A stretch of DNA of 64,000 nt from Dehalococcoidia bacterium. GTDB lineage: Bacteria; Chloroflexota; Dehalococcoidia; Lucifugimonadales; CATOSD01. Below, piece by piece: positions 7,860 through 51,220 of the stretch. Under the pieces are notes generated by a model, which was given only the letters and a program-made list of their open reading frames with translations, made no database searches and was not told where the DNA came from. The stretch covers positions 183,037 to 247,036 of the forward strand of contig CBDBBO010000001.1 of the NCBI GenBank assembly GCA_965203135.1. Direction: 5' to 3'. Position 1 is the first letter of the stretch, and each line of letters begins with the position of its first letter. The translations under genes were made by a program, and so were the position numbers.

Positions 7860-8288
7860 CTAGGTGACCACCCGCCACTCGTGGACCAACTGGCCGGTGC
7901 TCGTCTCTTCGAAGATCAGTTCCACCTGCGCACCGACCGGCACCTCGCCCGGCGGCGTGCCCGGCAGGTTCGACAGGAAGTTTATTCCCGGGTCCTCGTC
8001 CAGGGTAATCACCGCGAAGTTGATGGGCTGTGCGGACTGGAACCCCCTGATCCGGGAGTCGCGTATCACCATGTACACTTCGATGTGTCCCTTGCCCTCC
8101 ACCTCTCTCCACTCGAAGGTGTCGCCGGTACCGCACTGCTCGCACTGCGGGGTGGGCGGGTACTTCAATCTCTCGCAGTATGTGCAATACTGCAGAACGA
8201 GCCGCCGCTCGTTGCAGGCGTCCCAGAAGGGCTTTGTCAGCTCGTTCGGGACAGGCGCCGGTCTCTCCAATCCTGGAATCGTTGACAT
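7860..8288 (-). CDS. DUF35 OB-fold / Zn-ribbon acyl-CoA-associated protein
   Basis: Zn ribbon YCTYCERLKYPPTPQCEQCG. Start moved to ATG 8288 (MSTIPGLE, AGGAG upstream) because the ORF-track start 8366 overlaps the tRNA-Sec gene. Confidence 0.85.
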   Translation of the reverse strand: MSTIPGLERPAPVPNELTKPFWDACNERRLVLQYCTYCERLKYPPTPQCEQCGTGDTFEWREVEGKGHIEVYMVIRDSRIRGFQSAQPINFAVITLDEDPGINFLSNLPGTPPGEVPVGAQVELIFEETSTGQLVHEWRVVT

Positions 8289-8311
8289 GGTTCTTATCTC
8301 CTGTGGCTTCT

Positions 8312-8409
8312 TGGCGGGAGCGAGAGGGAGTCGAACCCACCATCCCGACCGCAGGGCCGGGACCAACGGATTTGAAGTCCGCGAGACCCACCAGGGCCCA
8401 TTCGCTCCC
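8312..8409 (-). tRNA. selC: tRNA-Sec (selenocysteine), anticodon UCA
   Basis: The reverse complement reads GGGAGCGA-AU-GGGCCC-UGGU-GGGUCU-C-GCGGA-CUUCAAA-UCCGU-(24-nt variable arm)-GGUGGG-UUCGACU-CCCUC-UCGCUCCC-G-CCA. It has an 8-bp acceptor stem, a 6-bp D stem with a 4-nt loop, a long variable arm and a 5-position T stem. Anticodon is at 8373-8375. Confidence 0.9.
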
Positions 8410-8454
8410 CTGATTATGATGCCGGCCGCGGGCCGGCGGCGGCACGGCCAGGGG

Positions 8455-8781
8455 CTAAGCCAGCGACTCTTCCAGCTTCTCCTTTAGCGCAGACTTGGGC
8501 ACCGCGCCCACAACCTGGCTTACGGGCACGCCGCCCTTGAAGATGAGCAGTGTGGGGATGCCCCTAATGCCGTAGCCGAAGTATGTCTTGGGGTTGCTAT
8601 CTATGTCCATCTTCGCGAACTTCACCCGGCCGTCGTACTCCTCCGCCAGGTCCTCCACTATCGGCGCGATCATCTTGCAGGGCGCGCACCAGTCCGCCCA
8701 GAAGTCCACCAGCACAGGTACGTCCGCCTTCAGCACGTCGGCGTCGAAGGTGTCGTCGGTTACGTCTACGGGATGCGACAT
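8455..8781 (-). CDS. trxA: Thioredoxin
   Basis: WADWCAPCK active site. Start set to ATG 8781 (MSHPVDV), with GGAGGA 5 nt upstream. Confidence 0.9.
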   Translation of the reverse strand: MSHPVDVTDDTFDADVLKADVPVLVDFWADWCAPCKMIAPIVEDLAEEYDGRVKFAKMDIDSNPKTYFGYGIRGIPTLLIFKGGVPVSQVVGAVPKSALKEKLEESLA

Positions 8782-8901
8782 GTCATTCCTCCGCAATTCC
8801 TAGTCCGGCGAGCGGGACCTCGATGAGTCGCCGTCGCCCTACACTCACAATTCAATGTATCACCCCGGCCTGTGGCGTGAGAACAAGCCGGCGGCGCGCC
8901 C

Positions 8902-9486
8902 CTACCTCCTGTAGTCGATGTAGTCGAGAAGAATGTCGTCCACTTCGTTCCACCAGAGCGTGCCCAGCGTCATACCCTGGGGCACGTCGAACACCATCCA
9001 GCCGCTCACCTGCGTCTGGCGGGCCAGCTCGATTTTGCCCCACAGAAACGGCACGTACAGGTTCGAATCGTCGCCGGCGCTGTCCAGGAACTCGGCCGAT
9101 CCCACCGGATCCACCGCCTCCACGCGGCGCGAACGCCGGTCGCCGATCTCCGCGGCCGCCTCGTCCACCAGCAGCGGCACCACGGTCGTGGTCCTGTTAA
9201 CGATGGTCACCTTCGCCACCGCGATTCGGCGGTTCGACGCGATGGGGCGAATCACGCGGTGCCGGCCATCGGCCCCGACGTAGGCCACCCTATCGACGAC
9301 CTCCGGAAGTGTGGAATGGATCTCCAGACTCCGGCCCCGCTTGGCGACCAAGTCCGATTCATCGCCTCCACATCCCGCGGCCGTCAACAACAGCGCGGCG
9401 GCGGCAAGCGCCATCAGGGCCACACTCAGGTACTTTCTTGGCGCTCCCGCCAGCGGAAGTTGTTGCGTGCGCATTCGCAGGTTCAT
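8902..9486 (-). CDS. Hypothetical lipoprotein (beta-rich, DUF4352-like)
   Basis: 194 aa. Signal peptide with lipobox LLLTAAGC. The family assignment comes from general sequence character only. Confidence 0.55.
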
Positions 9487-10676
9487 TCCACCGCCGAAAG
9501 CGAGGGCATGCTTCGGAGCCTTTCCAACATGCCCGGTAGTACCGAGAGCACGTAGTCCACGTCCTCTTCCGTGTTGTCCCGGCCCAGCGTGAAGCGCAGG
9601 CTTCCCTGCGCCAGCGTCGCCGAGCGGCCGATGGCGACCAGGACATGTGACGGTTCGAGACTGGCGGACGAGCAGGCGCTGCCGCTCGAGGCGTACACGC
9701 CGGAGAAATCGAGACTGAGCAGGATCGGCTCGCCCTCCACGCCCTCGAACGAGATGTTCAGGTTGTTGGGCAGCCTCTGAGTCGGGTGCCCGTTGAGGTG
9801 AGCACCGGAAACGGAATCCAGGATGCCGCGTTCCAGCCTGTCCCGGAGCGCCTCGCAGTGCGCGGTAACGGACTCCCGCTCCTCGTTGGCCAGCCGGAAC
9901 GCCTCCGCGAATCCCACGATGAGAGGCACATTTTCCGTGCCCGAGCGGCGCTGCCGCTCCTGGCCGCCGCCCTGCTGCTGCGGCTCGAAGGGCGTGCCGC
10001 GCTTGACGTACAGCGCGCCGACGCCCTTTGGCCCGTAGAACTTGTGGCCCGAGAGGCTCAGCATGTCCACGCCGAGCTTCCTCACGTTCAGGTCCAGAAA
10101 TCCGGCGGCCTGTACCGCGTCCGTGTGCACGACGATGGTGCGGCCCCTGCGTGCGGCCTCGTCCTTCACGATGCGAGCGATCTCCGGTACCGGCTCGATG
10201 GTGCCGATCTCGTTGTTGGCGAGCATCACGCTCACCACGGTCGTCTGGTCGGTGATCGCGTCGGCGACGTCGTCGGGATCGACCAGGCCGTAGGAGTCCG
10301 TCGGCAGGTATGTGACGTCAAAGCCGAACTGCTCCAGCTGATGGCAGGTGTGCAGTACGGCGTGGTGTTCGATGCTGGTCGTGATGATGTGGTTGCCGAG
10401 GCGCCGCAGCGCGAACGCCGCGCCCTTGATGGCGGTGTTGTCGGACTCGGTGCCTCCGCTCGTGAACACGATCTCGCCGGTGCGGGCGCCCAGCGCGCGC
10501 GCCACCACCTCGCGGGCATCGTCCATCGCCATGCGGGCCTGCTGCGCCAGCGTGTATATGCCGGACGGGTTGCCGAAGTTGGCCCCGAAATAGGGGAGCA
10601 TGGCCTCCAGCACCTCCCGGCGCACCGGTGTAGTCGCCGAGTGGTCCAGATATATGGCTCTTTCGCTTAGCGTCAT
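9483..10676 (-). CDS. Cysteine desulfurase (NifS/IscS class V aminotransferase)
   Basis: 397 aa. [18 protein letters not shown]-lysine motif and SSGSACSS active-site loop. Confidence 0.9.
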
Positions 10677-19217: not shown

Positions 19218-20162
19218 TCATCCCAGCCCGTAAAGCCGCGCCGCGTTCCCGCCCAGCACCAGCCGCTTCTCTTCCTCCGACAACCCCAACCCTGCCGCCA
19301 CGTGCTCCTCGGGAACGTTCCTGTACATATCCAGGTACCAGCCATTGGAGGGCGACATGGGATTCGTCCAGTCGGTGGCGTACATCACCCGCTCGGCGCC
19401 GAGCACGTCCACCGCGTTCCGCAGGTAGCGGTAGAATCTGCCCGGGCCGCGCCGCGCCATTCCCTGCCAGAGCGCGGTGTCGATGACGATGTTGGGGTGG
19501 ACCTCGGCTATCGCCAGCATGTCCTGATACCAGCCGAAGCTGCCCCTGGAGTGACCCACGCCGCCGTGTCCTGCGTGTATGGTGAGACCGGGGAAGTCTA
19601 CGCTCACCTCCTCCAGATGCAGGGGGTGGGCGTACTTGCTGAGCATCGGCGGCGTGGCGACCGGGCCGACGTGGAACATCACCGGCGCGCCGGCCTCCTC
19701 GAGGACCTCGTAGATGGGATACACCAGCCGGTCGTTGGGATAGTACCCGCCCGCGCAGTAGAGCTTGAGTCCGCGCGCCCCCCACTCGTGGACGGCCTTG
19801 CGCACGAACCTTGCGGCGTTGGGACGGCGCGGGTCGATGCTCGCGCACCACGCGATGCGGTCAGGGTATGCGGCGGCGATCTCCGACGTGAGCCGGTTCT
19901 GCTCCTCGATGGGGACGGCGCTGTCCTGTCCTGGCACCACCGCTCCGTAGTCGACACGGAAGACCAGCGCCTTGTCCTGGCCGATGAGATCCATTTCGGC
20001 GATGAGGCCGCTGGCGTCGGGATCCCAGGTGCGTCGGACGAATTCCTGCGCTTCGTCGAGCGAAATGCCCCGCGCGCGGGCCGCGCTTGCGAGCGCGCGG
20101 TTCTGGTTCCACTGCGGACGCCACCCCTCGGCCCACACGTGCACGTGGGCGTCGATTATCAT
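19218..20162 (-). CDS. Amidohydrolase-2 family metal-dependent hydrolase (TIM barrel)
   Basis: 314 aa. MIIDAHVHVW N-terminal HxH metal motif. Confidence 0.85.
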   Translation of the reverse strand: MIIDAHVHVWAEGWRPQWNQNRALASAARARGISLDEAQEFVRRTWDPDASGLIAEMDLIGQDKALVFRVDYGAVVPGQDSAVPIEEQNRLTSEIAAAYPDRIAWCASIDPRRPNAARFVRKAVHEWGARGLKLYCAGGYYPNDRLVYPIYEVLEEAGAPVMFHVGPVATPPMLSKYAHPLHLEEVSVDFPGLTIHAGHGGVGHSRGSFGWYQDMLAIAEVHPNIVIDTALWQGMARRGPGRFYRYLRNAVDVLGAERVMYATDWTNPMSPSNGWYLDMYRNVPEEHVAAGLGLSEEEKRLVLGGNAARLYGLG

Positions 20163-20190: not shown

Positions 20191-20943
20191 CTACCAGAGT
20201 ATGGTCAGCACGTACTCGGGCGGAAACTCCGAATCGTCCATCGGATTCTCTGGCTCGATGTCGAAGCTCCTGAGCACGAAATAGAGCTGCCGCAGGTGCT
20301 GCGTGGTGTGTCCGGCGATGAGGTCTAGCTGCTCAGCGCCGGTGCGCATCCCCTCGCCGCGCGACTGCCGCAGCGAGTCGTGGTCGGCACCCGCAGCCCA
20401 CTCGCGCAGCTCATTTGCCACCTCAACGCCGTAGTCGGCTATCTGGGCGAAGCTCTCGTAGGAACGGCCCGGCAGGTCCATCGTCGCCTGGTCTTCCAGG
20501 GCGAAGACGCCCGTTTCCACGCCCCGGATCGTGCGCTGGATCATGCGGAATATGTGGTATCCGAACTCGCGCATCGGCCTGTCGCGGTCCGGAGCCGTGT
20601 AGTCGAGCTTCTCGTCCGGCATCTGCCGCAGCGCCCGTTCGACCGCCCCGGCGATCCTGACCAGCAGCGGCAGCGTCTCCGACGGGTCGCGCGGCTCGGA
20701 CTCCTGCCCCAGATTGAGAGCTTTGGACAGCTCGTTTGGGCGGAAGCCCGCAATGCCCTTGCCGTCGATGACTGTGACCGGCACCGTGCGGAATCCCAGT
20801 TCTCTCAACTCGTCCAGCGCGCCGGGGCTGTTCTCGATGTCCCTGTCCTGGTAGGGAACGTTGTTGTTCGAAAGAAACTCTTTCGTTCGCGCGCAGGTCG
20901 CTCAACCTATCCGCGCGTATACCTTGACGTCGGCTTCCAGCAT
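20191..20943 (-). CDS. Predicted selenoprotein: glutaredoxin/NrdH-like domain with a U-x-x-C redox motif, fused to a DinB-like domain (UGA 20902-20904 read as Sec)
   Basis: Own translation from ATG 20943: MLEADVKVYARIG-[TGA]-ATCARTKEFLSNNNVPYQDRDIENSPGALDELRELGFRTVPVTVIDGKGIAGF. It continues in frame into the 205-aa track ORF, whose C-terminus has DinB-like His residues (GYHIF, AGHTTQHL). The TGA falls on the first Cys of CxxC. Confidence 0.7.
20869..20885 (-). promoter_or_regulatory. Candidate bacterial SECIS hairpin
   Basis: mRNA sense CGAAAG-AGUUU-CUUUCG: a 6-bp stem and a 5-nt loop containing GU. The stem starts 16 nt 3' of the UGA. Confidence 0.45.
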
Positions 20944-28425: not shown

Positions 28426-28866
28426 ATGCCTGGATTGACTAAGCAGCAGATGTACGAGTTCCTGACCAGCGGTCGCCGGTTGCTGAAGCTGGCGACGCTC
28501 ACGGAGGACGGGACGCCCTACGTAGTGCCGCTGTGGTACGACTACGACGGCGAGGCGTTCAGCGTGGCCGGCCGCCGTCGCGCGAGGTGGGTCGCAAACA
28601 TCCGGCGTGACGGGCGCGTGGGCGGCCTCGTGGACACGGAGGAGGCGGCCTACGTCCGGGTGGTGTTCCAGGGCCGCGCCGAGATACTGGACGACGCATG
28701 GCTCCACTCATCGCCCGCGCGGGCCATCCGCTACCTCGGCGAGGAGGCCGGCCTGCGCTACTACGAGTCGGCCCACCGCGAGCCACGGGCGCTCGTGCGC
28801 ATCGTGCCGGAGTCGGTGCAGAGCTGGGCAGGGCCGGGGTGGCACCCGCGCTATCGAAAGAGCTGA
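28426..28866 (+). CDS. Pyridoxamine 5'-phosphate oxidase family (PPOX / F420- or FMN-binding split-barrel) protein
   Basis: LLKLATLTEDGTPYVVPLWYDYDGEAFSVAG is typical of PPOX-class proteins. Start set to ATG 28426. Confidence 0.8.
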   Translation: MPGLTKQQMYEFLTSGRRLLKLATLTEDGTPYVVPLWYDYDGEAFSVAGRRRARWVANIRRDGRVGGLVDTEEAAYVRVVFQGRAEILDDAWLHSSPARAIRYLGEEAGLRYYESAHREPRALVRIVPESVQSWAGPGWHPRYRKS

Positions 28867-29708
28867 AGGTTCAACCCAAGCCTGAGCTTAGAGTCTAGCT
28901 TCCTAACGAAATCGTCCTTCTTGGGCATTCCTGGATTGTTTCGCATCGCCTGATAAACCTCCTCAACGGTGGTCGATACAAGCCGGCCCAGTTGCAGCGT
29001 AACAGAGTCGCCTTCCGGGACGAGGTCGTACAGCGCAAAACGCGAGGCGTCACTAGGCGAAAAGCCCTCAGACTTGAACCCGTACCTGTTGACCAGGTTC
29101 GCATATATGTACTCCTGTATCACCCAGTAACACTTGGTATCCCAGGCCTCATACACTATGCCCTTGTTCATCAACTGGGTTATGGCTCGCTTGATGGAAT
29201 CGTAGGTGTTCATGCCAAATCGGTATGCTTTGGCGTTGACGTCCTCGCCTTCGGAGAACTCGCGTATAGCCTGCACAAGTCCGCCCGTGCTGGTCGTCGA
29301 GTCAGACTGATACTCGACCGACACGAAGTCATCCACTTCCGGTTTCATCGCCTTGTGCCGAACGAGAACGTGGTCTATGTTACCCACGTTCGGCAGCCTG
29401 ACCTCGGGGAATGCGACCACGTTGTCAAGGTCTCCGAAGTAGTGTAGCGCGATGTCCTCCAACACCCTGGATACGCCTGCAATAGAACCGGGTTCGTCGA
29501 ATCGATGCGGGCAAATGGCCCGGAGTCCGTCGCCGTGTTTCGCTGAACAGACGCCGAACGGGAAGTCAATCATCCGACTCTTCTTGTCGCACGTCTGGCC
29601 CTGAAACGGACACCAATGCCGTCGGAGGGCCTCCCGCGCTTCAGGCGATTGGTCCCACACAGGATAGCCGAAAATCTCGGACGGCCGATTACCCGGATTT
29701 TCTGCCAT
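28851..29708 (-). CDS. NotI-family type II restriction endonuclease
   Basis: 285 aa. The N-terminal four-Cys pattern CPF-x5-C-x13-GVC-x12-CPHR parallels the Fe-Cys4 motif of R.NotI. EIFGYPVW resembles NotI EFFGHRVYP, and VEYQS resembles NotI LEIQT (E-x-Q catalytic strand). Compared with NotI from memory only. Confidence 0.65.
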   Translation of the reverse strand: MAENPGNRPSEIFGYPVWDQSPEAREALRRHWCPFQGQTCDKKSRMIDFPFGVCSAKHGDGLRAICPHRFDEPGSIAGVSRVLEDIALHYFGDLDNVVAFPEVRLPNVGNIDHVLVRHKAMKPEVDDFVSVEYQSDSTTSTGGLVQAIREFSEGEDVNAKAYRFGMNTYDSIKRAITQLMNKGIVYEAWDTKCYWVIQEYIYANLVNRYGFKSEGFSPSDASRFALYDLVPEGDSVTLQLGRLVSTTVEEVYQAMRNNPGMPKKDDFVRKLDSKLRLGLNLQLFR

Positions 29709-31758
29709 CAGCCTTCCCCTGTATCAGCCCTCGCCACGCTGCCCTAATCTCGCTCTCGGTATGCCCACCCTCCAGCAGCCAGCCGAGCGTTACTCCGCAT
29801 TGCCGGCAGAACGTCTCGCTGTCTTTTGTCTCGATTCGCTCCGGCGGTTCCCACGCGGCAGCCGGGCCGCTGTCGCCGAGCGCGAACACCAGAATGCTGT
29901 CGTGCTTGATGGAGTTCAGATTCCTGATGTGTACTGAAATCGGGTGCTCGGAGTGCACAACGTAGCAGTTGGTCAACCTGAACCCGGCGGCCCTTAGCGC
30001 GATGGTAAGCTCGGCCCAAGCGTCGGGGTCCCAGTGGTGGAAGGTGAACGCCATACGGCCCACGTCGGCCTTGAGTACGCGGGCGCATTCGACGAAGATC
30101 CCTGACAGTGCGTCAGTGAATCCGCCGCCGGCCCCAGTCTCGACCGCACTGAGCGATTGATCGTAATCCCACTCCAGTTCGTCCGGCAACATTCGGGCCA
30201 GCCATACACGGAAGAACGCTGCCAAGTCGCTGTACTGAACGCTGTCGTAGTAAGGTGGATCTGTTACCACGAGGTCCACGGAGCCGTCGGAAATCGGCAA
30301 GCTGCGGGAGTCGCCGTGAATCAGCCAAAACTTCCGATGTTCGCCTACTAGACTGGCCTCGCCGAAAACCTCTTCGCCGTCGTCCACTTCGCCGGGTACC
30401 GTGATTGTCTTGCTATCACCGTTCGCGGTGACTAGTCGCTCGATAGGTAGCGCGGCCCACTTCCGCCCTCGTTCGATGCGGTCGTGGAACAGCAGCCGCA
30501 AATTGCCAGACGTTCGGCGGGGGTTGACTGGGTTGTTCTCCAACGCGGTGTAGGGGAACGAGTAGGCGTGCAGTGCGAACACGTGCCTGATAGCGCCCGG
30601 CCTACGCTTGTACCAGCCCTTGTAGCCGCACATCATCGAGTTGAACTCCAGCGATGTTGACACCAGCATCGCCAGATTAAGCTTCTCGACGCCGTGATAG
30701 TCTCGTAGTAGCCGTATAGATTCATGGATGTACAGCAGTTGCCGTGATGAGAACAGGTCCAGGTACGAATAGACGCCACGTCTCAGCAGGTCGCCGGACT
30801 TGGGGCCACCGGATATCGTGAAGTGCTCTGGCTGGCCGAAATCCAGTCCGGCGCGGCGCTTGTTCGCCTTGTCGATACGCGCCTTGTCCGACTCACTCGG
30901 CGCACGGAAGAACAGCCCATGAGCGTCGCAGACGGCGGCAACGGCGACCGAAACGTAACGTGCGTAGAACGGCACGTCCAACAGGTCGGCGTACTCGCGC
31001 CCGCAAGATGGGCATATCTTGTCCGCCTTAGTTACCAGGCCAGCAGTTGCGGCAGGCGCAAGCTCCCCGGCGTTCTCTAGAATCTCCCCACTCTCTGGAC
31101 AGATGCCAATCGTCCTGCCACTCTCCTGGCGGAGTTCGTACCGATCTATCTGAACGACTTCCCGGCAGGCGCAGGTCTTGCGAACGCCGTGAAGGGCATA
31201 CTGAACATCAGTAGGGTCGTCACAGATTGGGCACTCGGTTTGGAAATAACTTCCCACGCTCTCGTACAGGCGAGCGTGAAATTGGTCGAAGGCGGCTCTC
31301 AGCCTTGGCAATTCGGCCTTGGTGAGCGACGCGCGGGCCTGCGCTATCGGGATAGGGTCTATGTCAGCGCCTATTACATTCGCGCCTAGACGAATCGCCT
31401 CATGTAGGGTTGTGCCGCCGCCCATCATCGGGTCGAGAACGACCTTTCCCTCCAGTCCGCCGGGCGCGTAGTAGTCGCGTCGCTCACTCTCCGGCGCGAA
31501 GTGCTTGAGTATGGCGCGAAACATCGAGCCGCACCGTCGCGCCCACCACTTGTGAAGGTAGGTGTTGGGACGGAACAAGTGCTTGTTGAACACCTCGCGG
31601 CGGGAAAGCTCGTCAACGAAACTCTCCGGAAAGGGGTGGTCGATGTCCAGGCTGCGGGCCGTCTGAGTTGAGAGCGTCCATTCATCCAAGGCCATCTGGC
31701 GGTCGTCTCGGATGGTGTATCCTGAAGCCTCTCTTCTCTTTGCTCGGTAGTCAACCAT
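29689..31758 (-). CDS. DUF1156-type DNA amino-methyltransferase with Zn ribbons (COG1743-like)
   Basis: 689 aa. YLHKWWARRCGSMFRAIL (DUF1156 signature), SAM motif DPMMGGGTTLHEAIRLGANVIGADIDP, CxxC...CxC and CPxxG...CPSCG ribbons, catalytic VTDPPYYDSVQYSDL. 20-nt overlap with the endonuclease gene. Confidence 0.8.
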   Translation of the reverse strand: MVDYRAKRREASGYTIRDDRQMALDEWTLSTQTARSLDIDHPFPESFVDELSRREVFNKHLFRPNTYLHKWWARRCGSMFRAILKHFAPESERRDYYAPGGLEGKVVLDPMMGGGTTLHEAIRLGANVIGADIDPIPIAQARASLTKAELPRLRAAFDQFHARLYESVGSYFQTECPICDDPTDVQYALHGVRKTCACREVVQIDRYELRQESGRTIGICPESGEILENAGELAPAATAGLVTKADKICPSCGREYADLLDVPFYARYVSVAVAAVCDAHGLFFRAPSESDKARIDKANKRRAGLDFGQPEHFTISGGPKSGDLLRRGVYSYLDLFSSRQLLYIHESIRLLRDYHGVEKLNLAMLVSTSLEFNSMMCGYKGWYKRRPGAIRHVFALHAYSFPYTALENNPVNPRRTSGNLRLLFHDRIERGRKWAALPIERLVTANGDSKTITVPGEVDDGEEVFGEASLVGEHRKFWLIHGDSRSLPISDGSVDLVVTDPPYYDSVQYSDLAAFFRVWLARMLPDELEWDYDQSLSAVETGAGGGFTDALSGIFVECARVLKADVGRMAFTFHHWDPDAWAELTIALRAAGFRLTNCYVVHSEHPISVHIRNLNSIKHDSILVFALGDSGPAAAWEPPERIETKDSETFCRQCGVTLGWLLEGGHTESEIRAAWRGLIQGKADGRKSG

Positions 31759-40221: not shown

Positions 40222-40817
40222 GGCGTAGAGTACCTCCGTACTGATTTTGGGGTGGTATCAAGTATAAGCCCGATTGCCTGGTTTCACAATAGCGCGGTGC
40301 GCGCGCTGCGGCCCTTCCATCGGCGGCATGGGGGGCGCGGCACAGGCGATGCGTGGAAGGGGATTTCGCGAAAGCGTGATGCAAACTGATGCATTCCGAT
40401 GCAGCGCGTAGCCGGCGTCTTGGGTTACTCGTAGCGGCGGACGGGTCGAAGGCTCGCCGGGGGAAGGTGACTTTGCCGAAACGTGCCCCATATCGCACCA
40501 TTCCGCACCACGTCGTAGCTGGGAGAGGGGCCTCGTTGGGTCTCTCGGAGGCGCTGTTGGGTAGAGGCTTGGGCATGATGGCACCAGAATTGCACATAAG
40601 AGTGGCAGGCCGGCGAGAGTCGCCAGCGGGGGCCTTCGTGGTCGATGGTTTAGGGTGTCGGTCTGGCATGTGGGGAGAATAGCACAGATGTGCGGGGTGG
40701 GTCAAGGGCCCCCTCGGCTTGGTCATCCGCGAAGGGCGGTTATCTCCCCCGCGCACAGGCGTTCGTCGTCTTGTACAATGGAGTAATTCAATCATCGATA
40801 AGTTAGGAAGGTATCCA

Positions 40818-42251
40818 TTGAGACTCGTTGAACCCATAGAATTGTCAGGATTGTTCTGGTTGCCGGGGCAGGTAGATTCTCGGTTGCCCGGCGTCCTCAA
40901 GATTTCCGAGTCAGGAGAAATCACAGTTGACTTTACGGGGGCATTTGGAGACGCTCTCTCGACGCCAATTGGGGCAAGTGCGTTGGCAGCGCCAACAAGT
41001 AGAGAGGAACCAGAAACCGACCCGAGTCGAATTGTGGGTGTCTTGGAAAGAGGCGGGCGCGTTACGCTAGATAGGTGTCTCCAGAAGGAAAGTAGCTTCT
41101 CATTTCCGGCTGGGTTGTCTAGTTCAACGTTCACGGCCGAGCTCGCTTTCGTCGGTGCTGAGTATAGTGAAGGGGAGGAAGCGGTATTTTCGGAGTTCAG
41201 CTTCTCAGTAGAAGGACTTGACGACTGGATAGCGGTATCCGGTATCGGGATCGAGCGTGATCCACACGCAAGGACTCCCAAGGGCTTGATTCGGTTTGAT
41301 GCCCCAGACGACATTGAGCTATCGCTTCCATCCGACACTGAAATGAGGTTTAGGTTTGGACTCACGTCTTCCAATGTGTCTGTACCACTAACCAGAGTTT
41401 CGATCCAGCAGTCCGCGTCGGTTCTGGTCAGACTTAAGGAACCACGTCCAATTAAGCACTTCTCGTCACTAGCGATAAGGCTCTGCAACTTCCTGACTCT
41501 CGCGTTGGATCAGGCTGTATCGATACAGTCAATGACCGGATTCCTTGAACTCGATGGAGCGGCGGAAAGGAACCGTCGACTTCCGGTCAAGGTGTATGAC
41601 GAGTTTGGTCCTTGGCCTGAAAGGGAACCCGTCATACGCTGGCACGAAGCCCTTTTCTTGTACCCACGTGTCGCCGAGAGTCTTGAAGAAGTGATGGGCA
41701 GGTGGTTTGAGAGCTACGATACCTTTGAAGCAGCATTTAACCTGTACTTTGCAACGAGGACACAGACTTCTCAGTTTCTGGATGCGAAGATTCTGTGGCT
41801 CACTCAAGCACTAGAGACATTACATCGCCGAAGCTCTGACGAGACGGAAATGGCTGACGAGGAGTTTCGGGAACTGATAGATTCACTTATGCAGGCCTGT
41901 CCGCCGCATAGATTAGAATGGCTACAAGCCAGGCTAAAGTACGACAACGAACTGTCTTTTCGGAATCGAATAAGGAGACTTCTGAAACCGGTCGAAAGAT
42001 GGTTCGGCAATGAAGAAGAGCGCAGAGCGTTCGTCAGCAGAGTCACGGACACGAGGAACTACCTTACCCGTTACGATGAGCTGTCTACCCCAAACAGAGC
42101 TACTACCGCTGAGGACCTGTTCGAACTGTATGAGAAACTAGAGGCACTTTTCCAGCTTCATCTATTGAACTTGATCGGCCTTGACGATTCGTCCATTGAG
42201 TCAATAGTGCAAGCAAATCGCAGACTTCAAAGGAAATTGAGGGCCACGTAG
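40818..42251 (+). CDS. apeA: ApeA-like HEPN-domain defence protein (ApeA N-terminal domain + Apea-type HEPN)
   Basis: N-terminus GLFWLPGQVDSRLPGVLKISESGEITVDFTG matches the characteristic ApeA NTD opening. C-terminus has ALETLH and VTDTRNYLTRYDE (HEPN helix). TTG 40818 follows AGGAAGG. The gene is visibly AT-richer than its flanks. Confidence 0.65.
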   Translation: MRLVEPIELSGLFWLPGQVDSRLPGVLKISESGEITVDFTGAFGDALSTPIGASALAAPTSREEPETDPSRIVGVLERGGRVTLDRCLQKESSFSFPAGLSSSTFTAELAFVGAEYSEGEEAVFSEFSFSVEGLDDWIAVSGIGIERDPHARTPKGLIRFDAPDDIELSLPSDTEMRFRFGLTSSNVSVPLTRVSIQQSASVLVRLKEPRPIKHFSSLAIRLCNFLTLALDQAVSIQSMTGFLELDGAAERNRRLPVKVYDEFGPWPEREPVIRWHEALFLYPRVAESLEEVMGRWFESYDTFEAAFNLYFATRTQTSQFLDAKILWLTQALETLHRRSSDETEMADEEFRELIDSLMQACPPHRLEWLQARLKYDNELSFRNRIRRLLKPVERWFGNEEERRAFVSRVTDTRNYLTRYDELSTPNRATTAEDLFELYEKLEALFQLHLLNLIGLDDSSIESIVQANRRLQRKLRAT

Positions 42252-42321
42252 CAGTGCGCCGTCCTCTCGCATAGCTTCAATGCTTGTCCCAGCAGATGTC
42301 GAGGATGCACCTTCGGTCACC

Positions 42322-42369
42322 TGTCAACTGCTCAAACGTTCCTGACCATCCACAGCAGAACAGTTGACA
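42322..42369. promoter_or_regulatory. 9-bp inverted repeat TGTCAACTG-(30 nt)-CAGTTGACA in the apeA/methyltransferase intergenic region; contains a TTGACA -35-like hexamer
   Basis: 42322-42330 is the reverse complement of 42361-42369. No convincing -10 box was found. Confidence 0.3.
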
Positions 42370-42420
42370 TCCAGAACACCCGGACGCGAGAGGCCGGGTC
42401 CGCTGAAGCGAGGGAATGCC

Positions 42421-45324
42421 ATGCCGCAACAGACTGAGCCGAGCGCGAATAATGCGCTGGGCGGGCTGCTTCAGGGGATGCTGTCCCGGAGCCGTGTGCA
42501 CTCGGAGAACACGCAGGCTATCGCGGGCCATGCGGGCTTGCAGCCTGACGTGCTGGTCATCACGCCTGGAGCGGCGCCCGTGGTCGTGGAAGCGGAGTTC
42601 GATCCCGCGTCGAACGTGGAGACCGAGGCGAAGGACCGTCTTGGGCTGGAGGTGGCTTCCAACGGGCGCGTGATCGAGGCGGTAATCGCTCTGCGCTACC
42701 CGGAGGACGTCCGGCAGGCATACGACCTGCGGGCCGCGCTCAAAACGGCGCGACTATCGTACTGCGTCTTCACGGAGGAGACGGTCGGCGAGAGCAGGTT
42801 CCCGGCGTCCGGCTGGCTGAAGGGGTCGGTCGAGGACCTGGCAAACATGGTGCGGCTGGTGTCGGTGCCGCAGCGCGCGGTGGACGCCGCGACGTTGGCG
42901 ATGGAACAGGGCATCGATAGAGTGGCCGCCATACTGGACGAGATGGAGGAGAGCCGTCCGAACATCAATCCGACCATAGCTCGGCTGTTGGGCATGACGA
43001 ACGTGCCACAGATGCGACGCATGGCCTGCGCCATCGTTGTCAACGCGATGGTGTTCCACGACCGCATAGCGGGGATGCACCCCCAGATCAGCCCGCTGAG
43101 GCTCGTGTGCGGGCCGGACGTGTCCAATCCGCAGGCTGAGACGCTGCAAGCCTGGTCCAACATCCTGAAGATCAACTACTGGCCGATATTCTCCATAGCG
43201 ACGGACATACTCAACCAGCTTCCCTCTGAATACGCCACACGGGTTCTGCGTACGCTCCTCTACACCGTTGGCGAGCTTTCCGCGACCGGCGTGGACAACG
43301 CGCACGACCTGACGGGGCGCATCTTCCAGAGACTGATCGCCGACCGCAAGTACCTGGCCACTTTCTACACGCTGCCCGCGTCGGCGGCGCTGCTGGCTCG
43401 GCTGGCTGTGGCAAAGATGGAGGACGTGGACTGGTCGGACGCGGAGGCGATAGGAAAGCTGCGTGTCGGGGACTTCGCGTGCGGCACGGGCGCGCTGCTG
43501 TCGGCGGTTTACGAGCAGATGGCCGCCCGCCACGAGCGAACCGGGGGCGATCCGGCGAACCTGCACAGGGCGATGATGGAAGAGGTGCTGTACGGCTGCG
43601 ACGTGATGCCGTCTGCGATACACATAACAAGCTCTACCCTGGCAGGTGCGCAGCCGAACGTCGGATACAACGAGTCCCGCCTTTACACGCTAGCCTACGG
43701 ACGCCAACAGGACCTCAGCGTCAAGGTCGGCTCGCTGGAACTGCTGGACTCTCAGTCCGCAATGGCGCTCTTCAACACCAGCGACCCGGCCAGACGCACC
43801 GGCAGCATAGGCGAGGAGACCGCCTCGATGGTGGTGGCGGACATACCGGACGAGAGCTTTGACGTGGTGATAATGAACCCGCCGTTTACGAGCGCCACCA
43901 ATCACGAGGGGGCGCACGCGGACATTACCAACCCCGCATTCGCTGCCTTCAACGCCACGCGCGCCGACCAGACCGCAATGGGCAAGCGGGCTAACAGGTT
44001 GGCGAAGGGAACCTGCTATCACGGGAACGCGGGTCTGGCCTCCGCGTTTGCGGCGTTGGCCCACAAGAAGCTCAGGCCGGGCGGCGTGCTGGCGTTGGTC
44101 ATCCCTCTTTCGGTCGCCAACGGCCTGTCATGGAACGGCTTCAGGGAGATGCTTGCCCGCGATTACACGGACCTGACCGTCTTAAGCATTGCAGCCAATG
44201 GACGCGACATGTCCTTCTCGTCTGACACGGGAATGGCCGAGTGCCTGGTGATAGCCCGCAGGCTTGCGGCAAACGAACAACCCGGAGAACGGGTAGGCTT
44301 TACGACGCTCAGGCAGAGGCCTCAGGGGTTCGCCTACTCAAGCTCGCTGTCCGCGGCACTCCTCGACGACGGAGAGGCAAGGGGCATCGAGGACGGGCCA
44401 TACGGGGGCACCCTGTTGATGGTGGGCGACGATGAGGAAGGGCAGAGGATAGCAGCGCTCGGTGGCAGTGCCGGCGAGAGTTGGGGTGCGGTTCGTGTGG
44501 CAGACTATGCCCTAGCTCAAACCGCCCACTATCTCGAACGGTCCAAGCTGTGGCTGCCCGGCAGCGCATCCTCTGTTGACTTGAAGACAGCGACGCTGGG
44601 AGTTGCAGGCGAGTTAGGCATTGTTCATCGTGACATCACAGGCCCGGTCCCGCGAGGGCCCTTTGACAAGGCGCCTCCGAGCCCGACGGCCACCTACCCC
44701 TCGCTTTGGAACCACAACGCTAAGAACGAGACCCGAATAGTCTGCGCTCCCGACTCGCGGCTAACTGTAAGACGGGGAATGGAAGAGAAGGCCGACACGA
44801 TTTGGGCGACTGCCAGCCGTGCTCACCTCAATCTCGACTTCACGTTCGGGGCGCAACCATTGGCTGTCGCATTCACCGATACGAAGACCATCGGTGGCAG
44901 GGTGTGGCCAAACGTTTCCTTCCCTGACAACCGATGCGATTACGCCTTTGCGGTGTGGGGGAACTCGACGCTGGGTCTGCTGTCATACTGGTGGCACTCC
45001 AGCCGCCAGCAGTCCAGCAAGGCGAGCGTTACCATCCGCTCGGCGGAGACGCTGCCGGTGCTGGACTTTCAGGCGCTCACGGACGAACAGTTTACGGAGG
45101 CGGAGGCGATCTTCGAGGAGTTCCGCGACAAGGAGCTGAAGCCGGCGTACCTTGCGGACGCGGACGCCAACCGGGCGCTGCTGGACAGGCGCGTGGTGTG
45201 CGACCTGCTGGGGTTCGACGAGGCGACCTACGAGGGGGTGCGTCGGCTGGCGGCGAAGTGGTGCGCGGAGCCGTCGGTGCACGGCGGGAAGGCGCGGCCG
45301 AAGGGCGCGGCGCTGGTGGTGTGA
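42421..45324 (+). CDS. Large solitary N6-adenine/N4-cytosine-type DNA methyltransferase with extra N- and C-terminal domains
   Basis: Motif I VGDFACGTGALLSAVYE and motif IV VIMNPPFTSAT. Start set to ATG 42421 (MPQQTEPSA). The N-terminal 110 aa carry PDVLV...VVVEAEF (possible degenerate PD-(D/E)xK). No adjacent S or R subunit. Confidence 0.75.
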   Translation: MPQQTEPSANNALGGLLQGMLSRSRVHSENTQAIAGHAGLQPDVLVITPGAAPVVVEAEFDPASNVETEAKDRLGLEVASNGRVIEAVIALRYPEDVRQAYDLRAALKTARLSYCVFTEETVGESRFPASGWLKGSVEDLANMVRLVSVPQRAVDAATLAMEQGIDRVAAILDEMEESRPNINPTIARLLGMTNVPQMRRMACAIVVNAMVFHDRIAGMHPQISPLRLVCGPDVSNPQAETLQAWSNILKINYWPIFSIATDILNQLPSEYATRVLRTLLYTVGELSATGVDNAHDLTGRIFQRLIADRKYLATFYTLPASAALLARLAVAKMEDVDWSDAEAIGKLRVGDFACGTGALLSAVYEQMAARHERTGGDPANLHRAMMEEVLYGCDVMPSAIHITSSTLAGAQPNVGYNESRLYTLAYGRQQDLSVKVGSLELLDSQSAMALFNTSDPARRTGSIGEETASMVVADIPDESFDVVIMNPPFTSATNHEGAHADITNPAFAAFNATRADQTAMGKRANRLAKGTCYHGNAGLASAFAALAHKKLRPGGVLALVIPLSVANGLSWNGFREMLARDYTDLTVLSIAANGRDMSFSSDTGMAECLVIARRLAANEQPGERVGFTTLRQRPQGFAYSSSLSAALLDDGEARGIEDGPYGGTLLMVGDDEEGQRIAALGGSAGESWGAVRVADYALAQTAHYLERSKLWLPGSASSVDLKTATLGVAGELGIVHRDITGPVPRGPFDKAPPSPTATYPSLWNHNAKNETRIVCAPDSRLTVRRGMEEKADTIWATASRAHLNLDFTFGAQPLAVAFTDTKTIGGRVWPNVSFPDNRCDYAFAVWGNSTLGLLSYWWHSSRQQSSKASVTIRSAETLPVLDFQALTDEQFTEAEAIFEEFRDKELKPAYLADADANRALLDRRVVCDLLGFDEATYEGVRRLAAKWCAEPSVHGGKARPKGAALVV

Positions 45325-45413
45325 GGGGAGGCAAATCAGAGCAAGTGCACAATAATGGCTCTCCACGAAAGACGATTGGCTCCCTCAGGAACAGACGCCT
45401 TGGTAGGTGAGGA

Positions 45414-46247
45414 ATGATCAATGGAACTGTGAACCGGAACCTCGTTCCTATAGTTCCGGTAAAGGTCAAGAGACTGGATGGGAACTGGCAGAAGCTAGGC
45501 ATGCTGTTGGACACTGGCTTCGAAGATAGGTTGTTAGTAGCAATGAACGCAGTTATGCAGCATAACATTTCAGTTTGGCCGCCCTACAATCCGACGAATC
45601 TGGAATACTACTCTCAACTCGGAGGTCGCTCAGAGTTCAAGTTGGAATGCAAAGTTGAACTCCTTCTGAGAAGAAACCAAAGGGTAGATGAGGCTGAGAT
45701 CATCAACATGCATGATTTCCCGGGCGTAATAGGGGTGGGCTTACTGTTACGACAACGGATAACCATTGATGTGATAGAGAATGGGGCAGTCGGAATAGAC
45801 CATATACCGCCACCTACCCGAACTGGACGAATCCGAAGGCTATTTCGCCGGCCCAAGCGCCAACGTCCCTATTCCGACTGTCCGCCTCTCTTCTCTACCC
45901 TTCCATGGGCAGAAGTAGCAGTTAGGGATAGAGAAGGCACTTATCACACCCTTTGTGCGAATGTGGACACGGGTGATAACGGGGAGTTGACCTTACCCCT
46001 TGACGAAGTCGAGAGACTCGGCTTGAGGCTTAATGAGAATAGCTGGGTGAGCACTATGAACGGGCCGGCTCATGCGAGCTGCGGTGAAATAGGGATAATC
46101 TGGCAAGGGGAAACACGCACCGTACAGTGCAGACAGCGCAGTGATGTAGACCGGCCGATCATCGGGATGAAGCTCTTGTCCGGCAATCGAATCACAATGG
46201 ACATTGGCTACCCCACCAAGATCGTTGACATCGCGCCCATACCCTAG
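45414..46247 (+). CDS. Tandem (two-lobe) retropepsin-like aspartic protease
   Basis: 277 aa with two D-T-G active-site motifs (MLLDTGFE at codon 33, NVDTGDNG at codon 185). Each is followed by a hydrophobic-Gly motif (VIGVGLL, IIGMKLL). Sampled lines are about 43% GC. Confidence 0.65.
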   Translation: MINGTVNRNLVPIVPVKVKRLDGNWQKLGMLLDTGFEDRLLVAMNAVMQHNISVWPPYNPTNLEYYSQLGGRSEFKLECKVELLLRRNQRVDEAEIINMHDFPGVIGVGLLLRQRITIDVIENGAVGIDHIPPPTRTGRIRRLFRRPKRQRPYSDCPPLFSTLPWAEVAVRDREGTYHTLCANVDTGDNGELTLPLDEVERLGLRLNENSWVSTMNGPAHASCGEIGIIWQGETRTVQCRQRSDVDRPIIGMKLLSGNRITMDIGYPTKIVDIAPIP

Positions 46248-48775: not shown

Positions 48776-51220
48776 ATGTCGATGCGTCCCGAGAGGTTTA
48801 CGGAACAGGCGCGCGAGGTGCTGGGCAGGTCGCAGGAGATACTGCGGCGCTACAGGCACACGCAGTGGGAGAGCGAGCACGTGCTGCTGGCGCTGCTGGA
48901 GCAGGAGGGCGGCGTGGCCGCCGACGTTCTGGCGGACATCGGCGTATCCGTCGCCGAGCTTCGCGCCGCGCTGGAGTCCCGGCTCGTCCAGTGGCCGACC
49001 TTCCAGCGCGACGCCAGCCAGATCTTCGCGTCGCCCAGGGTGACGGAGATGCTGGCCCGCGCCGACGCGGAGTCGCGGCGCTTCAAGGACGAGTACATAG
49101 GCGCCGAGCATCTGCTGCTGGCGCTGGCGCAGGACGAGGCGGGAGGCGTGGCGCAGTCGGTGCTGCGGCAGTTCGGAGTCGACCAGGAGAGCGTCTATCG
49201 CTCGCTCCAGGCGGTTCGCGGCAGCAACAGGATCACCGACCCCAAGTCGGAGGAGCGCTACCGCTCGCTCGAGCGCTACAGTGTGGACCTGACCGAGCTC
49301 GCGGAAGAGGGCAAGCTCGATCCGGTGATCGGGCGGGACACCGAGATCGCGCGCGCGATGCAGACGCTCATCCGGCGCACGAAGAACAACCCCGTGCTCA
49401 TAGGCGGCGCGGGCGTGGGCAAGACCGCCATCGCCGAGGGACTGGCGCAGGCCATCGCGTCCGGCAACGTGCCGGACGAACTGAAGGAGAGGCATCTGCT
49501 CGCGCTGGACATGGGCGCGCTGGTGGCCGGCGCGAAGTTTCGCGGCGAGTTCGAGGAGCGGCTCAAGGCGGTCATGGACGAGGTGCGCCAAGCGGAAGGG
49601 GAGGTCATCCTCTTCATCGACGAGATACACACCGTCGTAGGCGCGGGCGCGGCAGAGGGCGCGCTGGACGCCAGCAACATGCTGAAGCCGGCGCTGGCGC
49701 GCGGCGAGCTCCAGTGCCTGGGGGCGACGACGGTGGAGGGATACACCCGCAACATCGAGAAGGACGCCGCGCTGGAGCGCCGCTTCCAGCCCATCCTCGT
49801 GGAGGAGCCGGACACCGAGACCGCGCTGGAGATGCTGCGCTCGCTGCGCCCCAGGTACGAGGCGCACCACAAGGTCGAGATCGAGGACGCGGCGCTGGAG
49901 GCCGCGGTGCGGCTGAGCAGCCGGTACGTGACCGAGCGGCTTCTGCCCGACAAGGCGGTGGACCTGATAGACGAGGCGGCGAGCAAGGTGCGCATCGGAG
50001 TCCCAGATGCTGTCGCCGGAGCTACAGGAAGAGAGCGTCGCGGCTGCGGCGGCTGGAGGACGAGGAGCAGGCGGCGTCGCAGTGCGCGGAGTACCAGAAG
50101 GCCGCCGAGCTCCGCGCGGAACGGCTCAGGCTCCAGGAGGAGTTCGAGCGCGCGCTGGTGGAGTCGGGCAGGGACGCGGACGGCGGCAAGACCGTGGACG
50201 CGGCGGCGATTGGCGCGCTGGTTTCCACCTGGACGGGCGTGCCGGTGGACAGGCTGCTAGAGAGCGAGGCCGACAAGCTGGTCCACATGGAGGAGCGGCT
50301 GCACGAGCGCGTCATCGGGCAGGACGCCGGCATCTCGGCCGGTGTCCGACGCCATACGCCGCGCCAGGGCGGGCCTGAGCGACCCCGACCGCCCGTACGG
50401 CAGCTTCATTTTCCTGGGGCCGACCGGCGTCGGCAAGACGGAGCTTGCGCGCGCGCTGGCCGAGTACCTGTTCGACGACGAGGCCAACATGGTGCGCATA
50501 GACATGTCCGAGTACATGGAAAAGCACACCGTCTCCAGGCTAATCGGCGCGCCGCCCGGCTACGTCGGCTACGACGAGGGCGGACAGCTCACCGAGGCGG
50601 TGAGGCGGCGTCCCTACAGGCTGGTGCTGTTCGACGAGATCGAGAAGGCGCACCCGGACGTGTTCAACGTGCTGCTCCAGATCCTGGAGGACGGTCGGTT
50701 GACCGACGGACACGGCAGGACCGTCGACTTCCGCAACACGCTCGTGATAATGACGAGCAACCTGGGAACGGCGCAGCTCGGGCGTCCCACGGCCGGTTTC
50801 GTGCGCGACGACGGCGCCGCACCGCGGCTGCGGGCGTCCATCGAGGACGCGCTGAGAAAGGCGTTCCGGCCGGAGTTCCTGAACCGCATCGACGACATAG
50901 TAGTCTTCGATCCGCTGACCCAGGAGCAGATACTCCAGATCGTGGACCTGATGCTGGCGGACGTGGCCGCACGGCTGGCCGAGCGCGGCGTCGGCATCGA
51001 GTTGACGGACGAGGCGAGGCGCTGGCTGGCGGACAAGGGCTACGACCCCGTCTACGGGGCGAGGCCGCTGCGCCGGGCGGTGCAGCGGTACGTGGAGAAC
51101 GCGCTGGCGATGAAGGTGATTTCGGGCGAGTTCGCCGAGGGCGACACCGTGGTGGTGGACGTGGACGGCGACGACCTGGGATTCCGCGAGCATCGGGAGA
51201 GGGTGGCCGTGCCGGCGTAG
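48776..51220 (+). pseudogene. Clp/Hsp100 AAA+ chaperone (ClpC-length middle domain, ClpB-like N-terminus) interrupted by three +1 frameshifts
   Basis: NBD1 ([13 protein letters not shown]) is in the frame of 48776. The segment [14 protein letters not shown] is in the frame of 50007. LRRLEDEEQ...[40 protein letters not shown] is in the frame of 48865. [12 protein letters not shown]...[11 protein letters not shown] (NBD2) is back in the first frame from 50342. Confidence 0.8.

Follow-up and report, generated by a model that had tools for sequence, protein, structure and literature searches.

A tRNA-Sec gene and a putative glutaredoxin–DinB selenoprotein gene in an uncultured SAR202-type Dehalococcoidia bacterium

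A 98-nt gene on the minus strand of a Dehalococcoidia contig raises the question of whether UGA is read as selenocysteine (Sec) in the source organism. The preliminary description had presented the gene as a tRNA-Sec with the anticodon UCA and had taken it to imply that UGA is decoded as Sec. Two tRNA genes were called by ARAGORN in the window (the whole stretch of DNA analyzed, 64 kb), and one of them was tRNA-SeC(tca) at exactly 8312–8409 on the minus strand, as first described. The Rfam model RF01852 (tRNA-Sec) matched 8316–8409 on the same strand over its full length (model positions 1–91 of 91), with 70.1 bits, 23 bits above the gathering score of 47, and an E-value of 2.6e-12 for the whole window searched against all 4227 families. 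As these two independent programs agree, the gene was identified as a bacterial tRNA-Sec (Table 1).

The MFE fold of selC (−50.5 kcal/mol, z = −2.55) comprised an acceptor stem of 8 bp, a 2-nt linker, a D stem of 6 bp with the 4-nt loop UGGU, an anticodon stem of 5 bp with the loop CUUCAAA, and a variable arm of 9 bp with a 4-nt loop. The 8-bp acceptor, the 6-bp D stem with its 4-nt loop, and the long variable arm had all been described correctly. The sequence reads GGGAGCGA-AU-GGGCCC-UGGU-GGGUCU-C-GCGGA-CUUCAAA-UCCGU in its 5′ half and, after the variable arm, GUGGG-UUCGACU-CCCUC-UCGCUCCC-GCCA. Each strand of the T arm (GUGGG/CCCUC) contributes five positions, and one of the five pairings is a U.U mismatch (50:64). 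The acceptor/T branch is of the 8/5 type with 13 positions. The terminal GCCA provides the discriminator G (G73) and an encoded CCA. By each feature testable here, the tRNA belongs to the bacterial tRNA-Sec family, and we hold with high confidence that 8312–8409 represents an ordinary tRNA-Sec(UCA) and a functional selC of an uncultured SAR202-type Dehalococcoidia (Chloroflexota). Its peculiarities are minor: the U.U in the T stem, the linkage to trxA/nifS rather than to selAB, and the insertions at its 3′ end in relatives. The gene itself is routine and had been obscured by an ORF caller without a tRNA track.

Table 1. Coordinates of the selC locus and of the putative selenoprotein gene in the window
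Feature	Position	Strand	Details
DUF35/ChsH2-type OB-fold gene	7860..8291	-	Pfam PF01796 and PF12172; ATG 8291, 20 nt past the tRNA
Spurious N-terminal extension of listed ORF 7860-8366	8292..8366	-	Overlaps the tRNA; homology of L002/L006 ends at 8313-8315
tRNA-Sec (selC)	8312..8409	-	98 nt including discriminator G and encoded CCA; ARAGORN, Rfam RF01852, fold, covariation
Anticodon TCA (reads UGA)	8373..8375	-	ARAGORN: position 35 of the gene; anticodon loop CTTCAAA
G+C-rich hairpin in the 45-nt trxA-tRNA spacer	8421..8455	-	ViennaRNA -20.8 kcal/mol; without a U tract after it
trxA, thioredoxin with WCAPC	8455..8796	-	Pfam PF00085, 112.7 bits; NCBIfam TIGR01068, 122.4 vs cut-off 96.8
Hypothetical protein, lipoprotein-like N-terminus	8902..9486	-	Homologue of 52% identity at the same place in L105
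NifS-type cysteine desulfurase	9483..10676	-	Pfam Aminotran_5, 277.8 bits; TIGR03402 NifS, 533.9 vs 530.75
Putative selenoprotein gene, glutaredoxin/NrdH-like (UxxC) and DinB_2 fusion	20191..20943	-	250 codons including one for Sec; read-through translation
Candidate bacterial SECIS hairpin CGAAAGA-GUU-UCUUUCG	20869..20885	-	16 nt past the UGA; fold, RNAalifold
In-frame TGA, proposed Sec codon	20902..20904	-	Codon 14, motif G-U-A-T-C; TGA kept in homologues

The fold was further examined in an alignment of 32 homologues, comprising the window selC, the copies in the related loci L004, L005, and L105, and 28 tRNA-Sec genes from metagenome contigs, which were picked by the same D-arm and anticodon-arm pattern as the window gene. 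Standard pairs of the window 8/5 structure were found in 94.5% of the cells, versus 44–55% in slid controls, for which the 3′ partners were shifted by 1–3 columns. Changes on both sides were observed at 20 of the 33 pairs, and the observed values were reached by none of the 500 shuffles. The acceptor helix was paired in 92.1% and the T helix in 96.9% of the cells; the D helix was also 96.9% paired, with both-side changes at three of its six pairs. At position 50:64, 21 of the 32 sequences have U-A, and five (the window, L004, L005, L105, and L147) have U.U. Because five sequences, including L105 and L147, carry the U.U, it appears to be a lineage trait and not decay. It falls in the part of the acceptor/T branch that bears the determinants against EF-Tu in E. 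coli tRNA-Sec. In the L105 tRNA, compensatory changes occur in both the D stem and the variable arm, and the same U.U pair is retained. The selC copies in L003, L004, and L005 are near-identical, and the closing pair of the anticodon stem (27:43) changes without compensation, being G.U in the window and, among these close relatives, C.U in L004 and G.A in L005.

Compared with E. coli selC (RF01852, 8/5), the window gene shares the UCA anticodon, the 8-bp acceptor and 5-bp T stem, the 6-bp/4-nt D arm, the long variable arm, G73, and the encoded CCA. It differs in the T-stem U.U, common to the four relatives named above, and in being linked to trxA/nifS and not to selAB, while 39 of 80 metagenome tRNA-Sec loci were adjacent to SelB. 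An (8/4) tRNA-Sec has been described for Actinobacteria and Chloroflexi, with one variant reported from Chloroflexi (Mukai et al. 2016, PMC5389517). The long D stem with its tetraloop, the long variable arm, and UCA are shared by the window tRNA with these (8/4) tRNA-Sec, the allo-tRNAs, and selC* of that study, whereas its T stem has five positions per strand with a mismatch instead of four pairs and a bulge, and its discriminator is G73 instead of U73.

The Pfam matches of the flanking genes (PF00085, PF01796, and PF12172) bore out the placement of the tRNA between trxA and the DUF35 gene on the same strand. The listed ORF 7860–8366 has its TTG start inside the tRNA, and the preliminary description had regarded its N-terminal extension as spurious. 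The real start of the DUF35 gene is ATG 8291, located 7 nt past GGAG, and the same MSTIPGL start was found in L001, L002, and L003. As the homologues begin at MSTIPGL behind GGAG, the extension is indeed spurious. Past the DUF35 gene, a thiolase-like gene and then two short-chain dehydrogenases follow on the same strand. For the lipoprotein-like protein at 8902–9486, no family match was retrieved from Pfam or NCBIfam. The speculation that the NifS neighbor is a selenocysteine lyase found no support, as the protein scored 118.8 bits against the cutoff of 525 for SclA (NCBIfam NF040779) and exceeded the cutoff for NifS. The hairpin in the trxA–tRNA spacer may be a terminator or a processing/stability element. 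Hairpins of different sequence occur at the same place in L003, L004, and L005 (−21.7 to −28.4 kcal/mol), i.e., the structure is kept across these loci and the sequence is not. Around the tRNA, neither the promoter nor the terminator scans outperformed shuffles, whether in the window or in L105.

The preliminary description had also flagged every in-frame TGA as needing a second look, and a client of the tRNA was therefore searched for by seeking an in-frame TGA upstream of every predicted gene in the window. A 'DinB' ORF (20191–20808, minus strand), 12.5 kb from selC, was found to run on via the TGA at 20902–20904 to an ATG at 20943, which lies behind GAAAGGA. In the product of this extended gene (Grx–DinB), the Pfam family PF00462 (Glutaredoxin) matched residues 6–64 across the TGA with 52.5 bits against a cutoff of 22.9, and small Trx/Grx/NrdH proteins from the PDB matched residues 5–78. 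The DinB_2 domain occupies residues 99–220. The TGA corresponds to the first Cys position of the CxxC redox motif, and RTVPV provides the cis-Pro position. When every TGA of the window was scanned with relaxed criteria, no other Sec candidate with a redox motif or family support emerged. Two TGA junctions were considered as selenoproteins and rejected, since each joins two complete genes (MBL hydrolase/NUDIX at 1241 and amidohydrolase/TPP enzyme at 19220).

A total of 85 database homologues of Grx–DinB were retrieved, and Cys was present at the site in none of the 82 sequences read, all of them at 34% identity or more. These were gene calls that start past the TGA (many at MKEFLS) or have Trp at the site. 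All seven homologue loci read as DNA had TGA at this codon, with identities of 88, 89, 64, 59 (two contigs), 53, 37, and 34% (TGA-bearing loci L081, L209, L082, L083, L084, L207, L208, and L210). One relative's contig, CATOSD010000002.1, carries both a tRNA-Sec (L004) and the TGA gene (L210). In a search of 1.84 billion representatives, distant full-length homologues of 25–31% identity had CxxC aligned to UxxC, which would be a classical Sec/Cys pair. Three public metagenome calls give Trp for the Sec TGA (P0011, P0015, and P0084; L082 283–285 and L083 181–183). The Trp calls are presumably an annotation artefact that hides selenoproteins, and the short contigs were presumably put under genetic code 4. 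The public NCBI records among the matches are named 'DinB family protein'. Grx–DinB thus appears to be systematically misannotated, the close public homologues that were read being either a truncated 'DinB family protein' or Trp calls.

Glutaredoxin selenoproteins are already known (Zhang et al. 2006, PMC1794560). Like the glutaredoxin-type bacterial selenoproteins of that study and the NrdH and YruB families, Grx–DinB has a thioredoxin fold, a predicted Sec at the first CxxC position, and Cys homologues. Unlike the glutaredoxin selenoproteins, it carries a C-terminal DinB_2 fusion, and none of the NCBIfam models reached its cutoff on the product (64.6 vs. 85.75 for NrdH and 39 vs. 66 for Uxx-star). 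No paper linking DinB with selenoproteins was found within the searchable literature library. We tentatively suggest that the Grx–DinB fusion is, quite possibly, an undescribed selenoprotein family, which could be a main reason the tRNA-Sec has been kept. Its hosts are presumably aerobic, sponge-type SAR202 bacteria. This putative family is more novel than selC itself, which is an ordinary gene.

The hairpin at 20869–20885 is likely the SECIS of this gene. It has a 7-bp stem with the apical loop GUU, and the consensus from RNAalifold is the same hairpin as that from the single-sequence fold. The seven Sec forms, which span 41% to 65% G+C, share the hairpin core AAAGAGTTTCT without variation. 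In the window genome, AAA accounts for 7.3% of Lys codons, TTT for 8.2% of Phe codons, and CTT for 5.3% of Leu codons, and the joint probability of the AAA, TTT, and CTT codons in AAAGAGTTTCT given this codon bias is 2.7e-4. Two of the three Cys forms encode the same K-E-F/L-L via AAG, TTC, or CTG, and one keeps the A/T-rich version. In stability the hairpin did not exceed shuffled sequence (z = −0.12), nor did its covariation over the seven sequences rise above the controls; energy and covariation were not counted as evidence for the SECIS. In the Cys form at L211 301–1098 (CTSC motif, gene GC of 71%), K-E-F-L is still encoded by AAA GAG TTT CTC, and these A/T-rich codons could be a fossil SECIS after a Sec-to-Cys change.

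No SelA, SelB, SelD, or classical selenoenzyme was found in the Pfam scan of all plausible genes of the 64-kb window, and tblastn searches of the window and of 84 related loci (flanks up to 10 kb) with the three E. coli Sel proteins detected no selA, selB, or selD. The tblastn approach works, because the same E. coli queries matched in 80 unrelated metagenome tRNA-Sec loci, with SelB in 39, SelA in 19, and SelD in 14. A weak SelA-like match was observed in a SAR202 relative (L058 11867–12625; 26.6% identity over 278 aa, E 7e-6). It was rejected as a selenocysteine synthase and is probably a paralogue, which fits the 1–4 copies of COG1921 per SAR202 bin.

Slaby et al. 2017 (PMC5649159) reported the joint occurrence of SelA and SelB for most sponge-symbiont bins and their absence from most related reference genomes. 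Table S4 of that study lists COG1921 (SelA), COG3276 (SelB), and COG0709 (SelD) for all five sponge SAR202 bins (bin22, bin127, bin90, bin16, and bin87), of which bin22 corresponds to MPMM01, i.e., locus L043, a relative recovered here. COG1921 is present in more than one copy in four of the five bins; SelB and SelD each have one copy. Since the multiplicity of COG1921 shows that SelA-like paralogues exist, little weight can be put on the SelA COG by itself. We infer the Sec machinery of the source genome from this clade. The present locus adds support at the sequence level to the published enrichment of selenocysteine machinery in sponge symbionts, including SAR202 (PMC5649159).

UGA very probably encodes Sec in the source organism. 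The conserved TGA of the Grx–DinB gene and the SelA, SelB, and SelD COGs of the clade (PMC5649159) support the earlier claim on this point. The recoding would be local and not a changed genetic code, because TGA is the normal stop for about 15 of the 49 predicted genes, at the expected domain ends. By the established pathway, the selC transcript, possibly derived from a trxA–selC transcript, would be trimmed at its 5′ and 3′ ends. SerRS would charge the tRNA with serine, the long variable arm and G73 being the presumed serine identity elements. SelA would convert the Ser-tRNA to Sec-tRNA with selenophosphate from SelD, and SelB would deliver the Sec-tRNA to UGA codons with a SECIS hairpin downstream. 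The client in the window would be the Grx–DinB gene, with its UGA at the first position of UxxC and the conserved hairpin 16 nt on. For annotation, TGA would not always be a stop in this lineage, and acting on the flag raised for in-frame TGA codons recovered the putative Grx–DinB selenoprotein gene.

Other readings of the tRNA were weighed against Sec decoding. It is very unlikely that selC is an orphan or decaying relic in a lineage past Sec decoding. Such a relic would be consistent with the sel genes not being found in the window or related loci, the T-stem U.U mismatch, the uncompensated 27:43 pair in L004 and L005, and the site being absent or displaced in L001 and L002. However, the U.U is retained in L105 across the change from 65% to 41% GC with compensatory changes elsewhere, the Rfam score is well above the cutoff, the intact TGA gene with the conserved hairpin is present in the window and on the relative's contig, and related bins are listed with the COGs of SelB and SelD (PMC5649159). 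As described by Mukai et al. 2016 (PMC5389517), look-alikes that read UGA as Cys or Ser (selC* tRNA-Cys or allo-tRNA-Ser) do exist and have surfaced as false positives in tRNA-Sec searches; the selC* tRNAs have U73, and the branches of the allo-tRNAs are 8/4 or 9/3. The window tRNA has instead G73 and an 8/5 branch with equal strands, and it is in register with 31 tRNA-Sec genes; SelB, moreover, adjoins 39 of the 80 metagenome tRNA-Sec loci. A look-alike is thus very unlikely, and a tRNA-Sec serving Sec decoding is preferred.

The linkage on the 5′ side of selC invites an add-on idea. The order nifS–lipoprotein-like–trxA–selC is kept in the window, in L003–L005, and in the distant L105 (1822–4343), where the proteins are 70% (nifS), 52% (lipoprotein-like), and 70% (trxA) identical to those of the window. 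Because this gene order is common to L105, a metagenome contig of 41% GC, and the window of 65% GC, the linkage appears to be old. In vitro, NifS-like enzymes are able to provide SelD with selenium. The four genes could accordingly be pictured as a dedicated selenium-delivery module, in which NifS would free selenium from selenocysteine for SelD and thioredoxin would be the reductant, both being co-expressed with the tRNA. The conserved order and the trxA–tRNA spacer of just 45 nt are in favor of such a module, but the protein fits the housekeeping NifS equivalog rather than SclA, both nifS and trxA belong to the general housekeeping genes, selD is absent nearby (in the window and related loci), and the promoter and terminator scans were uninformative. 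We consider the module improbable.

On the 3′ side, the arrangement differs among relatives. Using the thiolase-like protein as the query, 80 loci from different species representatives were retrieved at 85–98% amino-acid identity, all from Dehalococcoidia, Chloroflexota, or SAR202 MAGs, several of them from sponges. Among the 80 loci, an upstream tRNA-Sec was present only in L003, L004, and L005. Of these, L003 matches the window collinearly, with 92.9% nucleotide identity. In L004 (5913–9405), 3.5 kb with a sulfatase and a GMC oxidoreductase separate the tRNA 3′ end from the DUF35 gene. L005 (7236–9404) has a 2.1-kb insert with a solute-binding protein at the tRNA 3′ end, and a degenerate copy of the last 15 nt of the tRNA lies at its far junction. 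L001 has a segment of 53% GC (65% in the rest of the locus) that ends in GAGTTCGATAATCTCTCGCTCCCGCCA directly before the DUF35 gene. This GAGTTCGATAATCTCTCGCTCCCGCCA (1163–1189) consists of an exact copy of the last 15 nt of the tRNA and a T-loop-like stretch, and the contig ends 1.2 kb beyond. In L002 (1–9470), a type I restriction-modification system fills the 9.4 kb upstream, the island thus being at least 9.4 kb. No tRNA-Sec was found within the locus in the remaining 75 species. When the tRNA-less loci L002 and L006 were aligned to the window, homology stopped at the tRNA 3′ end.

Because the inserts of relatives begin, and homology stops, at the tRNA 3′ end, this end is both a synteny breakpoint and an insertion site in the clade, i.e., a hot spot for gene insertion. 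The window is the empty state of the site (equivalent to 8292–8311). No second copy of the tRNA 3′ end was found in the window at up to three mismatches; therefore, no island bounded by tRNA-derived repeats is present here. The adjacency of selC to the DUF35–thiolase operon is lineage-specific, accidental, and without functional meaning. selC is an insertion site for genomic islands in enterobacteria. The locus resembles those islands in that the varied inserts of relatives lie exactly at the tRNA 3′ end. It differs in that no integrase was seen at the insertions in the available parts of L001, L002, L004, and L005, the L004 and L005 inserts carry metabolic genes at native G+C content, and the site in the window is empty.

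Several other features were observed in the window. A ClpB/ClpC-type ATPase (48776–51220, plus strand) is present as two same-frame ORFs of 494 and 292 aa with a TAG between them, and about 60 codons near the break seem to be in the wrong frame. Either the gene is a pseudogene with a frameshift, or the assembly is in error here. The region 40719–46247 (plus strand) encodes an ApeA-like HEPN protein, a 986-aa Eco57I-type methylase/restriction fusion, and an ORF without an assigned family, and it looks like an acquired defence island. The G+C content is low (55%) at 40–42 kb of the window. At 28851–31758 (minus strand), a NotI-like restriction endonuclease adjoins a 689-aa DNA methyltransferase in a stretch of about 60% GC.
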